Shown here piece after piece: positions 3,954-7,389 of a stretch of 35,348 bases of DNA (position 1 is its first letter; each line of letters begins with the position of its first letter). The notes under the pieces are model-generated. The model was given only the letters and a program-made list of their open reading frames with translations, was not told the origin of the DNA and ran no database searches. Source of the DNA: a virus (lineage: Duplodnaviria > Heunggongvirae > Uroviricota > Caudoviricetes); IMG/VR virus record IMGVR_UViG_2687453512_000002; one strand, written 5' to 3'. The translations under genes were made by a program, and so were the position numbers.

Positions 3954-4112
3954 TTATGGCGATACCAGAGAGCTTTCTGCGTGTACATGCGTCTCTGTAA
4001 CTTGCTCTCCTTCACTGTGGTTGCAAGTGACATGAATATCTCCTTCGTTACCGATTAATTCTTTTATCTGACGAATGAATTCTTCGTCTGACCAGTTATC
4101 CGTAAAACTCAT
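3954..4112 (-). CDS. Small protein in the Kil position (52 aa), start overlapping cIII stop
   Basis: ATGA overlap with the preceding cIII-like gene, as in lambda cIII/kil; assignment by position only. Confidence 0.4.
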   Translation of the reverse strand: MSFTDNWSDEEFIRQIKELIGNEGDIHVTCNHSEGEQVTETHVHAESSLVSP

Positions 4113-4279
4113 GGACGGCCTTGTTGTTTCAAAATATCCCAAAGCTTTTCGAGCAAGCTTTTCATTCTTGGTTGTTTAAAGTCTGCTCCGGTTAAAATGT
4201 TTTTTCGTGAATGCTGTACCGATAAAATCGGGTTGAAAGGGCGAACCGATGCCGCCCCTGCAATAGCGAACTGTTGCAT
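4109..4279 (-). CDS. cIII: CIII-like protein (FtsH/HflB inhibitor, 56 aa)
   Basis: Starts MQQFAIAG and ends LWDILKQQGRP, paralleling lambda CIII (MQYAIAG … LIDILNQPGVP); strong AAGGAG Shine-Dalgarno 6 nt before the ATG at 4279. Confidence 0.7.
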   Translation of the reverse strand: MQQFAIAGAASVRPFNPILSVQHSRKNILTGADFKQPRMKSLLEKLWDILKQQGRP

Positions 4280-4473
4280 AGGATGCTCCTTCTGTTTGAT
4301 TGCATAACGAAAACGCCTCGAGTGAAGCGTTATTGGTATGCATATAAAAAAGCCCTCACACTGGAGGGCAAAGAAGATTTCCAATAATCAGAACAAGTCG
4401 GCTCCTGTTTAGTTACGAGCGACATTGCTCCGTGTATTCACTCGTTGGAATGAATACACAGTGCTTATTCGTA

Positions 4474-4944
4474 CTAATAAAACACCCAGTTTTCTGTTTC
4501 TTGGTTGTGTCCAAAGTTATATTCAATACCTGGTGTTGATGTATCAATATTCTTCATCCCATCAACAAGAGTTGATACAACAGCCAAATCTTGTTTGATT
4601 CTCATCAAATGGTATTTCTTCCGGCGCAATAAACTTTCAATGGCAAGTTTCTTCGTCGGGAATGCAAAAGATCTTTCTGCATTTTTTGCTACTTTCTTAA
4701 TTGCATATCTATTTCTCCTTTGTTTCCATTCCTGTAACCACTGATTTGGTGCTGGTTTAAAATTAACAATCCAATGCGCAGGAACCAACCATGCATAATG
4801 CTCTGTCTGATGAAAAGCTATATATTGAAGTGCGAATATTTTGATTCCATCTTCTTCAACTGTCGCTTGGAATCTCCAGAAAACAGGCATTCCATCATGT
4901 TCAGTTTCTGATTCAGGAAAAGGTACGCTCCATGATTTTGTCAT
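4474..4944 (-). CDS. Hypothetical protein (156 aa), AT-rich moron-like gene between N and cIII
   Basis: Complete ORF in a region of visibly lower GC than flanking phage genes; occupies the ral/sieB-type accessory slot; no transmembrane segments. Confidence 0.65.
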   Translation of the reverse strand: MTKSWSVPFPESETEHDGMPVFWRFQATVEEDGIKIFALQYIAFHQTEHYAWLVPAHWIVNFKPAPNQWLQEWKQRRNRYAIKKVAKNAERSFAFPTKKLAIESLLRRKKYHLMRIKQDLAVVSTLVDGMKNIDTSTPGIEYNFGHNQETENWVFY

Positions 4945-4952
4945 ATATCACC

Positions 4953-5252
4953 TCAAATAAGTGGTTTGCTGCCTAATTTCATTTTCTGGCGACCAACACA
5001 AGTCACACCCATTTCACTGCGTGGCTTGCGGTAGTAAATACGATTCTGTTTACTCTCGACTTCATCTGCCTTCTTGCAGCGAAGGATTCCGAGTGATGCT
5101 GCTTTATCCGCTCTGACGCAACCAGAGAGCTTTAGCGCAATTTTTCGCGCCAGTCGCTGTTCTTGCATCGCCTGTTCACGTTGAGCCTGTCTGCGTGCTC
5201 TGCGGCGATTTCTGGCGTTATCGTCAGCCAGATATGTAATGACTACTGTCAT
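4953..5252 (-). CDS. N: Antitermination protein N-like (99 aa)
   Basis: Translation from ATG at 5252 (GGAGG Shine-Dalgarno): MTVVITYLADDNARNRRRARRQAQREQ... carries an arginine-rich motif like the boxB-binding N proteins; first gene downstream of pL/nutL. Confidence 0.75.
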   Translation of the reverse strand: MTVVITYLADDNARNRRRARRQAQREQAMQEQRLARKIALKLSGCVRADKAASLGILRCKKADEVESKQNRIYYRKPRSEMGVTCVGRQKMKLGSKPLI

Positions 5253-5565
5253 GTTGACCTCCGATGAAACAACTTTGGAATTGATAGTGATTGCAAAGTG
5301 GTTTCTGGCCCCTCGAACTGAGGGGCAGAAAGAGCATCTCGCCACCTAATAGGTCGATGCTCGGATCGAGAGATTTAATTAACCTCGGTTTTGAAGTTAT
5401 GCATTCACATAAATCCTCCTACCTCTTGTGCAGCTTTCTTGAATATGGTGGCGGCTGCATAACGCCTATGGAATTGACTTTGGCGGTGACGCGCCGGGTG
5501 CTTATCTTCCGGTTGCCGTCGTGCAGCTGCACTTCACGTCACCCCAAAGCCAACTACTCTTTGGT

Positions 5566-5607
5566 TCCCGCATTTCGGCGGGACAATCCCATCAATGTTA
5601 AAGAGCC
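5566..5607 (-). promoter_or_regulatory. nutL (boxA GCTCTTTAACA plus boxB hairpin TCCCGC-CGAAAT-GCGGGA)
   Basis: Minus-strand sequence reproduces almost exactly the boxA-boxB element found downstream of cro (6697..6740). Confidence 0.6.
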
Positions 5608-5644
5608 TGCCAATCTGTTCCGTTTGGCTTCCAGCGTCCTGCTG

Positions 5645-5706
5645 ATGGCTTAAATTTAAGATCTCTTTAATTAATGGTCAAGAGCATTTTTGAAGAAAAC
5701 TTAAAT
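5645..5706 (-). promoter_or_regulatory. pL promoter with overlapping P22-type operators (OL1 5654..5671, OL2 5689..5706)
   Basis: Minus strand -35 TTGACC, 17-nt spacer, -10 TAAATT; 18-bp sites ATTTAAG-ATCT-CTTTAAT and TTTGAAG-AAAA-CTTAAAT fit the ANTNAAG-N4-CTTNANT C2-operator pattern. Confidence 0.55.
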
Positions 5707-5749
5707 TTTCTTTCGTAACTTAAGTTTGGCTTTGATTTTTAAAGGAAAT

Positions 5750-5772
5750 AAAAAAAAAGGGGCGAATGCCCC
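5750..5772 (-). terminator. Rho-independent terminator downstream of the repressor gene
   Basis: Minus-strand hairpin GGGGC-ATTC-GCCCC followed by a 9-nt T run, immediately after the repressor stop codon. Confidence 0.7.
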
Positions 5773-5773
5773 C

Positions 5774-6424
5774 TTATGGAAGGTTTGCTAGTTTTGCATC
5801 GACAACTACGCCGATGATTTTGCAGTTTCCGTTGATCTCGATCATCGGATATTGTGGGTTAAGTGGTTTTAGAAACTTCCTGCCTGCATCAATAACTAAC
5901 TTCTTGAAAGTTGCCTCGTTTTCTCCTTCGAGCTTTGCAACTACCAGTTTCCCGTTACGCGGCTCTACTTCAGGATCGACGAGTATTATCATTCCTTCAG
6001 GGATACTGAGACCGGCCGGAGCCGTCATTGAGTCTCCCTTCACGTCCAACCAAAACGAATCTTCTGAACAGTCTACGGTTGTATCGTACCAGTTATCTAT
6101 TGCACGCTTATGATATGGTTCTACAGCTTCCATCCAGCATCCTGCGCTCACCCAGCTAATCAGAGGGTATGACCCTCTTGGATCATGCCTACTGTGATAG
6201 GCAATGTTTGAAAGACTTTCCTCTCCTTTCATCAGATAGTCAGGGGAACACTTCAACGCATTAGCCAGGGCGAGAAGATTCTCTCCATTTGGCTCTGTCT
6301 CAGAGCGTTCCCACTGAGATATGGCAACATTAGACACGCCGACCATCTTTCCAAGTGCGGCCTGCCTGATCTTGAGTTCTTTTCTCCGAGCGCGAATGCG
6401 CTCTCCCATCAATTGAGTTTTCAT
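5774..6424 (-). CDS. c2: Prophage repressor, P22 C2-type (HTH plus LexA-like S24 autocleavage domain, 216 aa)
   Basis: MKTQLMGERIRARRKELKIRQAALGKMVGVSNVAISQWER… with C-terminal GDSMTAPAGLSIPEGMIILVDPE…FKKL motif; near-identical to P22 C2 as remembered. Confidence 0.93.
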   Translation of the reverse strand: MKTQLMGERIRARRKELKIRQAALGKMVGVSNVAISQWERSETEPNGENLLALANALKCSPDYLMKGEESLSNIAYHSRHDPRGSYPLISWVSAGCWMEAVEPYHKRAIDNWYDTTVDCSEDSFWLDVKGDSMTAPAGLSIPEGMIILVDPEVEPRNGKLVVAKLEGENEATFKKLVIDAGRKFLKPLNPQYPMIEINGNCKIIGVVVDAKLANLP

Positions 6425-6490
6425 AGTTAAGACATCTTAAATAAACTTGACTTAAGATTCCTTTAGTGGATAATTTAAGTGTTCTTTAAT
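6425..6490. promoter_or_regulatory. OR operator region with divergent pRM/pR (OR3 6425..6442, OR2 6450..6467, OR1 6473..6490)
   Basis: Three 18-bp sites AGTTAAG-ACAT-CTTAAAT, ACTTAAG-ATTC-CTTTAGT, ATTTAAG-TGTT-CTTTAAT; TTGACT -35 and GATAAT -10 upstream of cro. Confidence 0.75.
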
Positions 6491-6504
6491 TTCGGAGCGA
6501 GTCT

Positions 6505-6690
6505 ATGTACAAGAAAGATGTTATCGACCACTTCGGAACCCAGCGTGCTGTAGCTAAAGCGTTAGGCATTAGCGACGCAGCAGTCTCTCAGTGGAAGGAA
6601 GTCATCCCAGAGAAAGACGCCTATCGACTGGAAGTCGTTACAGCTGGCGCCCTGAAGTATCAAGAAAGCGCTTACCGCAAAGCGGCATAA
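6505..6690 (+). CDS. cro: Cro repressor (P22-type, 61 aa)
   Basis: MYKKDVIDHFGTQRAVAKALGISDAAVSQWKEVIPEKDAYRLEVVTAGALKYQESAYRKAA, matching P22 Cro as remembered. Confidence 0.9.
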   Translation: MYKKDVIDHFGTQRAVAKALGISDAAVSQWKEVIPEKDAYRLEVVTAGALKYQESAYRKAA

Positions 6691-6696
6691 GCAAAT

Positions 6697-6740
6697 TGCT
6701 CTTTAACAGTCATGGTCCTCATTCCCGCCGAAATGCGGGA
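6697..6740 (+). promoter_or_regulatory. nutR (boxA TGCTCTTTAACA plus boxB hairpin TCCCGC-CGAAAT-GCGGGA)
   Basis: boxA is close to the lambda consensus CGCTCTTACACA; stem-loop 13 nt downstream; mirror copy present in the pL leader. Confidence 0.6.
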
Positions 6741-6747
6741 ATACAAC

Positions 6748-6780
6748 GCGCATAAGTTGATGCGCATAACTTCTTATTTG
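6748..6780 (+). terminator. Candidate tR1-like terminator
   Basis: Hairpin GCGCAT-AAGTTG-ATGCGC followed by a T-rich tract, between nutR and cII. Confidence 0.35.
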
Positions 6781-6798
6781 TTAAGGAAATACTTACAT

Positions 6799-7092
6799 AT
6801 GGTTCGTGCAAACAAACGCAACGAGGCTCTAAGAATCGAGAGTGCGTTGCTTAACAAAATCGCAATGCTTGGAACTGAGAAGACAGCGGAAGCTGTGGGC
6901 GTTGATAAGTCGCAGATCAGCAGGTGGAAGAGGGACTGGATTCCAAAGTTCTCAATGCTGCTTGCTGTTCTTGAATGGGGTGTTGTCGACGACGACATGG
7001 CTCGATTGGCACGACAAGTTGCTTCGATTCTCACCAATAAAAAACGCCCGGCGGCAACCGAGCGTTCTGATCAAATACAAATGGAATTTTAA
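6799..7092 (+). CDS. cII: CII transcriptional activator, lambda-type (97 aa)
   Basis: MVRANKRNEALRIESALLNKIAMLGTEKTAEAVGVDKSQISRWKRDWIPKFSMLLAVLEWGVVDDDMARLARQVASILTNKKRPAATERSDQIQMEF is near-identical to lambda CII as remembered. Confidence 0.9.
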   Translation: MVRANKRNEALRIESALLNKIAMLGTEKTAEAVGVDKSQISRWKRDWIPKFSMLLAVLEWGVVDDDMARLARQVASILTNKKRPAATERSDQIQMEF

Positions 7093-7114
7093 CAACATCC
7101 AACGAGGTAATTAT

Positions 7115-7387
7115 ATGCGAAACAAAGGCTTTAATCCACCTGATACACACAAAGAAGCTAAGCGTTTGCGCTTCCTTCGTTCCATTGATGAAAGAACTCA
7201 AATCTCTTTTGTGAAAGTTGCCAGAACTGAGCTTCTGAAGGCTGAGGCGAGGGCGTTGCTCCCGTCTCTACCAAAAGAGGAGGGATATACGTTCATTCCA
7301 AACGCATTTCTGGAAAAGCTTCTCAAAGAAGACATATCCGTAAGTCAGTTTAACGATGTTCTTAAGGTCTTTCGTCAAGGCAGGTAG
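7115..7387 (+). CDS. Hypothetical protein (90 aa) inserted between cII and the replication initiator
   Basis: ATG at 7115 with GAGG Shine-Dalgarno; basic, helical translation MRNKGFNPPDTHKEAKRLRFLRSIDERTQISFVKVARTELLKAEARAL…. Confidence 0.55.
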   Translation: MRNKGFNPPDTHKEAKRLRFLRSIDERTQISFVKVARTELLKAEARALLPSLPKEEGYTFIPNAFLEKLLKEDISVSQFNDVLKVFRQGR

Positions 7388-7389
7388 TT

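Follow-up and report, generated by a model that had tools for sequence, protein, structure and literature searches.

The N gene leader in IMG/VR virus record IMGVR_UViG_2687453512_000002, from a P22-like or lambdoid temperate phage, raises the question of what lies between the nutL site and the N ribosome-binding site, and whether it is part of the antitermination signal. The whole 35,348-nucleotide stretch of this record is called the window here. A preliminary description of the window had pointed to a long N leader in which a boxA-like word, TGCTCTTTC, was followed by a hairpin at 5308-5337 on the minus strand, and had proposed that these formed a second boxA-hairpin pair, an RNase III processing site or a second RNA element regulating the translation of N. 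The leader was indeed long: the N ATG at 5252 is about 396 nucleotides from the predicted transcript start, compared with about 192 nucleotides in phage HK620. The word (5336-5328) and the hairpin (GCCCCTC-AGTTC-GAGGGGC, 5326-5308) were found where they had been placed, and the hairpin was conserved and above chance. Judged by the comparisons that follow, the element appears to be real but not a nut site, and to consist of two helices, P1 and P2, of a 206-nucleotide cassette.

An optional block in the N leader

Alignment with related leaders delimited one additional segment:

5267-5472, minus strand: accessory leader block of 206 nucleotides, present or absent between near-identical N leaders

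The leaders of the window, HK620, HK140 and CUS-3 were near-identical from the pL promoter to the sequence ending in GCCAAAGTCAAT, and again from CATCGGAGGTCAACATG onward. HK620 lacked the intervening 206 nucleotides (5472-5267), which were present in the window, CUS-3 and HK140. A corresponding pair was found among Cronobacter-type leaders, where locus L042 and locus L094 (phage ENT47670) were about 98% identical apart from the block (alignment A5, columns 312-517). In L042 the block was a precise indel of 206 base pairs bounded by a perfect 14-base-pair direct repeat, CAAAGCCATTTCAC, and ENT47670 represented the empty site, with one copy of the repeat. The repeat may be either a target duplication from insertion or the substrate of a deletion. 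The preliminary description had regarded absence of the second hairpin from phages with the same N gene as refuting, and this was seen in part: HK620 and others with the same nutL and the same N start were without the element. The hairpin stem was kept in every allele of the block.

Among 50,697 phage records, the block was found only in HK140 (deposited twice) and CUS-3. The stretch comprising nutL and the long hairpin that follows it was matched at 80% coverage or more in 19 phage records, three of which had the block (the two HK140 records and CUS-3). Of the 5426 complete E. coli genomes, 163 had the block, as did 64 contigs of IMG/VR and 20 from metagenomes. No wider homologues of the block were found by pattern scans of species-representative genomes, and a pattern scan of metagenomes gave no alleles beyond those known. 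The copies fell into four allele classes:

Allele A: the window and HK140
Allele B: the commonest allele in E. coli, of the CUS-3 type; identity is about 79% across the block and about 60% at its centre
Allele C: leaders with a P22-type nutL (boxB GCGCTGACAAAGCGC) and an N protein like gp24 of P22
Allele P: a core of about 120 nucleotides only (ribosome-binding site, start-stop pair, 9-codon open reading frame (ORF), P1 and P2), on 11 conjugative plasmids from Klebsiella, E. coli, Serratia and Citrobacter

In other words, the block accompanied both the H-19B/HK620-type and the P22-type nut sites and N proteins. Its core was about 93-95% identical between E. coli and Cronobacter-type phages, and the adjoining leader was about 65-75% identical or unrelated, as judged by inspection of the alignments. 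On this evidence the block is a discrete indel, resembling a cassette and accompanying N and nut specificities that are unrelated, and the sequence comparisons indicate that it moves between leaders of different nut and N specificities. The sole earlier annotation found for this DNA was in the CUS-3 record, where the entire cI-to-N interval, allele B included, is labelled 'boundary sequence' bsq5. That label denotes a mosaic junction and includes no helices, mini-ORF or indel boundaries.

The plasmid allele was located about 240 nucleotides from a convergent hok/flmC toxin locus and downstream of an ORF of 166 amino acids, as for example at 1500-1622 of locus L008 (plasmid pECTOK-001_1, NZ_AP018396.1). 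This upstream ORF had no PHROG or Pfam family. A tblastn search of the plasmid neighbour proteins against the window identified no protein partner common to the phage and plasmid contexts, and PHROG and Pfam searches with the plasmid upstream ORF and with a 66-amino-acid ORF from the IMG/VR contig L039 identified no shared partner. The L039 ORF (MSSRISNEQKDRL...) is an additional one; the 3' end of the block, with its Shine-Dalgarno sequence, precedes it, and the N start follows. A short AGGTGCC repeat bounds this ORF, which had no Pfam match and a marginal match to phrog_18213 (E = 0.0058).

Conserved helices in the block

Three helices were predicted in the block, the first of which encloses a small hairpin:

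5332-5362, minus strand: P1, in which GAGCATC (5362-5356) pairs with GATGCTC (5338-5332), 7 base pairs, the GAGCATC arm being 20 nucleotides upstream
5344-5354, minus strand: small hairpin inside P1, ACCT-ATT-AGGT
5308-5326, minus strand: P2, GCCCCTC-AGTTC-GAGGGGC, a 7-base-pair stem that can be extended to 5331-5302 via TTTCT/AGAAA
5266-5305, minus strand: P3, in which GAAAC-C-ACTTTG pairs with CAAAGT-T-GTTTC

P1 and P2 were predicted unprompted by RNAalifold from 11 distinct copies, and P3 was also predicted across alleles when a longer alignment was used. P3 joins the block-internal sequence GAAACCACTTTG to the repeat copy CAAAGTTGTTTC, and its 3' arm adjoins the N Shine-Dalgarno sequence. 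The TGCTC of the boxA-like word TGCTCTTTC was found to lie within the 3' arm of P1 (GATGCTC).

The sequence differences between alleles were consistent with pairing. In the plasmid copy P1 was GAACATC/GATGTTC, a compensatory double change from G-C to A-U that kept the helix and spoiled the match to boxA, and in a subgroup of allele A the first arm was GAGCATT, which changes a C-G pair to U-G. The P2 stem was kept in every allele, being CCCCGTC/GGCGGGG with a U.G pair in allele B. Its loop occurred in at least seven versions of four or five nucleotides (AGTTC, AATTC, ATGTC, AAGTC, TTAT, GACAG and TAATT). In P3, allele C had a U-A pair in place of C-G. In a model-guided alignment of 95 copies, representing 20 distinct sequences, 91% of the cells were paired, compared with 84% in shuffles, and none of 500 shuffles reached 91%. 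Pairing fell to 35-65% when the partners were slid, and four base pairs had changes on both sides. The two G.U pairs, in P1 of the allele A subgroup and in P2 of allele B, would become A.C mismatches if the RNA were read from the opposite strand, and therefore the structure would belong to the pL-sense RNA. The alignments thus indicate that compensatory and wobble changes, compatible with this RNA only, have kept the helices intact, and that selection, or very recent spread, has preserved the stems of the block and not its loops.

No promoter or terminator was predicted inside the block on the minus strand, or elsewhere between pL and N, and therefore N can be made only if the block is transcribed. 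An intrinsic terminator or attenuator was considered for P2 and rejected: the helix is followed by CAGAAACCAC, which has no U-tract, and there was no terminator-like site on the minus strand from 5650 to 5252. The outer pairs of P3 compete with extended P2, which reached at most 12 base pairs with a bulge and made up a minority of the ensemble. A riboswitch-like toggle between extended P2, P3 and a hairpin burying the N Shine-Dalgarno sequence was also considered. These structures are mutually exclusive on paper, and the toggle was not adopted because the ensemble probabilities varied with the fragment folded and with the allele.

Small open reading frames in the block

Upstream of P1, the block contained signals for translation initiation:

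5405-5420, minus strand: strong Shine-Dalgarno sequence AGGAGGA (5420-5414) followed by an ATG-TGA start-stop pair (5410-5405)
5375-5404, minus strand: 9-codon mini-ORF directly after the start-stop pair, ATG CAT AAC TTC AAA ACC GAG GTT AAT TAA (MHNFKTEVN)

The start-stop motif was conserved in alleles A, B and C and in the plasmid copy, which has TAA for TGA. Most block copies were retrieved by a pattern that contained the Shine-Dalgarno/start-stop motif; the copies found by BLAST only also keep it, one of them with an AGGGGGA variant. The mini-ORF peptide of the plasmid copy was MHKFKSESK, and that of allele C was MHNFKTEIN or MHNFKTQIN.

Further downstream, an ORF of 37 amino acids begins at an ATG inside P1 in the window and CUS-3; its frame differs from that of N, and it ends 26 nucleotides into N. 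The frame upstream of the N ATG in the window (5224-5345, minus strand) was open back to a GTG at 5345. Compared across the alleles, the frames upstream of the N ATG appear to carry no consistent coding signal.

A candidate cis-acting cassette

We consider it probable, if narrowly so, that the block is an accessory cis-acting cassette of the N leader, the nut sites being conventional and P1 and P2 being parts of a structured 206-nucleotide insert. That the cassette acts in cis on the N transcript by tuning N translation or mRNA stability or processing is a more tentative suggestion, possible without being probable.

In the broader reading, the region is the 5' untranslated leader of the N mRNA, opening with a conventional HK620/H-19B-type nutL that is matched by nutR, and the cassette is placed exactly between the N ribosome-binding site and the base of the long hairpin, which is the likely RNase III substrate. 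In the 5' to 3' direction it presents an AU-rich open stretch with a strong Shine-Dalgarno sequence, the ATG-TGA pair and the 9-codon mini-ORF, followed by P1, P2 and P3. P2 is a GC-rich hairpin in which the loop sequence appears immaterial, and P3 uses the duplicated target sequence beside the N Shine-Dalgarno sequence. Under the suggestion of a cis role, the approximately 206 nucleotides and three stable hairpins would hold the N ribosome-binding site at a distance from the nutL and long-hairpin region, and the open start-stop pair with its Shine-Dalgarno sequence, together with the mini-ORF, may provide a ribosome-loading site. The effect would be on N translation or on mRNA stability or processing, rather than on the recruitment of N or Nus factors. 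A GC-rich, loop-indifferent hairpin is typical of a stability, pausing or processing-boundary element, not of a protein-recognition site. In this form the earlier proposal, a second RNA element that regulates translation of N, is possible, as a conserved RNA structure between nutL and the N ribosome-binding site.

Several points weigh against a functional cassette. Its function is argued from sequence and folding, and the real diversity is small, with four allele classes, so that the support from covariation is real but comes from few independent events. The block is dispensable, as HK620 and most phages with this nutL are without it, and the plasmid copy has no obvious downstream gene, which fits an N-specific role poorly. 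The predicted accessibility of the N Shine-Dalgarno sequence was inconsistent and depended on the fragment folded: in the E. coli type it was unpaired with a probability of 0.22-0.39 with the block versus 0.60 without, and in the Cronobacter type 0.19 versus 0.25. The start codon of the mini-ORF is lost in allele B, the commonest allele in E. coli. The ORF that starts at the ATG of P1 is conserved neither in length nor in frame, since it encodes 37 amino acids in the window and CUS-3 and 7 in allele C, and in strain VG38 (locus L005) this ATG is in frame with N and would add 29 amino acids to it.

Alternative origins of the block

The main rival explanation is that the block is a neutral relic, that is, foreign DNA or a small non-autonomous mobile insert that created or used the 14-base-pair repeat. 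This is unlikely in our judgement, as is the corollary that the insert was tolerated as P3 restores the context of the N ribosome-binding site, with P1 and P2 as leftovers that have no role in the phage. A relic would account for the patchy presence of the block among near-identical leaders, for the precise indel with its direct repeat, for the loss of the mini-ORF in allele B and the inconsistency of the small ORFs between alleles, and for the absence of a consistent predicted effect on the N ribosome-binding site; the CUS-3 authors, moreover, annotated the stretch merely as 'boundary sequence'. However, it would not be expected that the helices of a relic are kept by compensatory and wobble changes across alleles that are about 60-73% diverged while the loops drift, or that its core is as similar between E. 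coli and Cronobacter-type phages as described above, next to a leader that is far less so.

It is quite unlikely that the block, or its core of about 120 nucleotides, is a mobile N-independent RNA cassette that inserts with a 14-base-pair duplication at the foot of the long hairpin, in lambdoid phages of unrelated N specificities, and is also found beside hok on plasmids. If true, this would add a new class to the regulators of early operons, one that is portable and might modify RNA polymerase, for instance, or ribosome-Rho coupling. The related idea of an autonomous RNA module that acts independently of N, as a put-like modifier of RNA polymerase or a processed small RNA, and that could serve any early operon and spread as a cassette, is improbable. 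It is suggested by the two adjacent stem-loops, spanning about 55 nucleotides in the leader of an early operon, by their presence both on conjugative plasmids and in leaders whose N and nut specificities are unrelated, by the direct repeat flanking the indel and by the better conservation of the core than of its surroundings. The put RNAs of HK022 resemble P1 and P2 in being two neighbouring stem-loops in a nascent early lambdoid transcript that require no cognate N specificity. However, put RNAs are longer and occur as a left and right pair (PMC9378689), whereas the window has a single copy about 290 nucleotides into the transcript, with shorter stems of 7 base pairs and no sequence similarity; comparison with the HK022 immunity region (putL, putR) gave only chance matches of 9-13 nucleotides, and put RNA was rejected as an identification. 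There was no promoter or U-tract terminator to delimit a small RNA, a search of positions 4000-8000 on both strands with the covariance models of Rfam 15 gave no match at E ≤ 1, and these phages already have N. The known prophage small RNAs Pas, AgvB and STnc100 were also rejected, as they are located near late genes and not in the N leader.

The long hairpin and RNase III

A much longer helix was predicted immediately upstream of the block:

5472-5555, minus strand: long leader hairpin separating boxB from the block; its basal stem has about 21 base pairs and one bulge

The basal stem was kept in six leader variants that had different interiors (60-150 nucleotides) and different stem sequences, with covarying stems such as GGTGACG/CGTCACC, GATTGGATG/CATCCAATC and GGTGTGG../..CCACACC. 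The hairpin was present in leaders with and without the block. In those without it, the foot of the hairpin was about 4 nucleotides from the N Shine-Dalgarno sequence; the block was inserted exactly at this foot, and P3 recreates a helix foot beside the N ribosome-binding site.

RNase III acts on substrates of roughly two helical turns. In the lambda N leader, according to what is reported from the Court laboratory, nutL is followed by an RNase III-sensitive hairpin and then by the N ribosome-binding site. In the window, a double-stranded feature of about 20 base pairs between nutL and the N ribosome-binding site is provided by the long hairpin and not by P1 or P2, which have 7 base pairs each. 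From the predicted folding, the hairpin at 5472-5555 is a better RNase III candidate than P1/P2, and by analogy it is likely to be the counterpart of the lambda N-leader RNase III site.

The proposal that 5308-5337 is an RNase III processing site, which would free the N ribosome-binding site from nutL-bound N as in lambda, is accordingly very improbable. The element does lie between nutL and the N ribosome-binding site, where lambda is known to have its RNase III site, and the leader as a whole was predicted to be unusually stable (z = -4.1). However, the proposal fails because helices of 7 base pairs are too short, even extended P2 reaches at most 12 base pairs, and the covarying basal stem of 21 base pairs is found just upstream, whether or not the block is present.

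The nut sites and the boxA-like word

The antitermination sites of the window were as follows:

5597-5607, minus strand: boxA of nutL, G-GCTCTTTAAC
5566-5583, minus strand: boxB hairpin of nutL, TCCCGC-CGAAAT-GCGGGA
6697-6740, plus strand: nutR, with boxA TGCTCTTTAAC, a 15-nucleotide spacer and the same boxB as nutL at 6723-6740

A search of the window with the pattern GCTCTTTAAC-N(8-25)-TCCCGCCGAAATGCGGGA gave exactly two matches, at 5566-5606 on the minus strand and 6698-6740 on the plus strand, and none in 100 shuffles. The 18-nucleotide boxB was found only in nutL and nutR, even when three mismatches were allowed. In both sites boxA fits the consensus (CGCTCTTA / TGCTCTTTAACA) and stands 13-15 nucleotides upstream of the boxB hairpin, which is the same in the two early operons. 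nutL is about 45 nucleotides downstream of the predicted pL and before N, and nutR is directly downstream of cro and before cII. Base for base, nutL was identical to the 42-nucleotide feature annotated as nutL in HK620, the record of which describes N as similar to the N proteins of H-19B and phage 21. Its boxB was invariant across all aligned HK620-type leaders, and in at least one Stx-converting phage the 49 nucleotides from boxA to boxB were 100% identical. The P22-type boxB, GCGCTGACAAAGCGC, was seen for comparison in L042 and ENT47670.

These sequences appear to be genuine nut sites. Their number and placement, the identity with HK620 and the assignment of the N protein to PHROG 271 support the preliminary description in its view that nutL and nutR share boxA and boxB, that they serve N-dependent antitermination, and that the boxB differs from those of lambda and P22. 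The nut type itself is the known HK620/H-19B type and adds nothing new, because nutL is identical to the annotated HK620 site.

The pairing of the element at 5308-5337 as a boxA and a hairpin did not hold. No single-stranded boxA was conserved as boxA there: GATGCTC, which contains the TGCTC of the word, is paired in P1 and reads GATGTTC in the plasmid, and allele B has GCTCTTC. Nor was there a conserved boxB loop matched to N, as at least seven loops occur on a constant stem, with both H-19B-type and P22-type N. The heptamer GCTCTTT occurred 10 times in the window versus an expected 6.7 ± 2.6, and 16 of 100 shuffles reached 10, so the resemblance of TGCTCTTTC to boxA is not above chance. A covariance model of the element found one copy per locus in the window and in 94 related loci, with no partner in the pR operon or another early operon. 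In the window the element scored 83.9 bits, and the next match, at 10494-10561 on the plus strand, scored 16.5 bits. This match was rejected as a second copy: it has a P1-like GAACATT/AATGTTC followed by TTTC, is without P2 and falls inside a hydrophobic ORF of 63 amino acids (10416-10607), and was attributed to chance.

A second nut-like site, whether the vestige of a nutL with a different N specificity or a target for a heterologous N or Nun protein, is hardly credible as a reading of the element: TGCTCTTTC does match the rrn/P22-type boxA TGCTCTTTA at eight of nine positions with a GC-rich hairpin next to it, and the leaders of this group are mosaic, but the word covaries within P1 in a way that damages the match, stands 1 nucleotide from its hairpin rather than the 13-15 of the phage's own sites, precedes a loop of variable sequence, has no counterpart downstream of cro or elsewhere, and is one element shared by leaders with two different N types.

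Comparison with known leaders

The window and HK620 have in common an identical nutL, the leader sequence from pL as far as the long hairpin, the N ribosome-binding site and the arginine-rich region at the N terminus of N; HK620 differs in the absence of the block and the shorter leader. In its immunity region the window belongs with CUS-3 and phage 21 and not with HK620. The lambda N leader, as generally described, has the same order of pL, boxA-boxB, a long double-stranded hairpin and the N Shine-Dalgarno sequence; unlike the window, it has no counterpart of the cassette, and there is no sequence similarity. The bar minigenes of lambda are two-codon ORFs transcribed from pL. They resemble the block in combining a Shine-Dalgarno sequence with a minimal ORF in the pL transcript, but the first ORF of the block is a bare start-stop pair, from which no peptidyl-tRNA is possible, and it is followed by the 9-codon ORF.

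The cassette represents a variant of the lambdoid N leader that had not been described before. N leaders are a classic model of post-transcriptional control, and some of them carry an optional structured cassette that has a relative on plasmids. If the cassette changed the dosage or timing of N, prophages of extraintestinal pathogenic E. coli (CUS-3-like, in K1 strains) would have in it a natural "tuning insert" for deciding between lysis and lysogeny. Its presence or absence as 206 base pairs in near-identical leaders provides a clean experimental handle. For annotation, a boxA-like word beside a hairpin is insufficient to call a nut site.

Phage setting, pL and the N gene

The genes and signals surrounding the leader were:

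5774-6424, minus strand: cI, a LexA-type repressor
6505-6690, plus strand: cro
6712-7092: cII-like ORF, with cII proper from an internal ATG at 6800
4953-5252, minus strand: N gene, 99 amino acids (ATG at 5252; the stop codon ends at 4953)
5258-5262, minus strand: N ribosome-binding site, GGAGG
5653-5681, minus strand: predicted pL promoter, TTGACC, a 17-nucleotide spacer and TAAATT

The match of the N protein to PHROG 271, 'anti-termination protein N-like', had E = 2.9e-36. The pL candidate was the sole promoter-like site in 4900-5800 and agrees in position with the pL annotated in HK620. From it we infer a transcript start at about 5646-5650. A strong terminator at 5775-5756, just upstream of pL, ends the cI transcript. 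For the cI-to-N interval the best full-length match was CUS-3 (93%), and HK140, HK620, N7 and others matched portions of it.

An ORF antisense to the leader has been called in some E. coli genomes as a PGAP hypothetical protein of 129-138 amino acids. In the window it has 120 amino acids and a TTG start (5291-5653, plus strand) and spans the N leader including nutL; in other loci it was found at 1020-1424 of L005, 1020-1409 of L006 and 193-609 of L098. Its frame changes between alleles and after a 2-nucleotide indel in the HK140-type copies, and it was rejected as spurious, probably a false gene call.

The first 40 nucleotides or so of the pL transcript (about 5608-5647, minus strand), CAGCAGGACGCTGG[A/T]AGCCAAACGGAACAGATTGGCA, were near-identical in E. 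coli and Cronobacter phages (L042 and L094, the latter being ENT47670). The phages with this common 5' start differed in their boxA spacers, boxB hairpins and N proteins, and the start appears to be a conserved 5' leader module. In Cronobacter phage ENT47670 (NC_019927.1; L094 587-1234), the annotated 'anti-termination protein N-like' coding sequence begins in the pL/leader region and covers nutL and the long hairpin. This annotation is most likely over-extended, with the true N start at the ATG after ACGAGGACAAAGCC.

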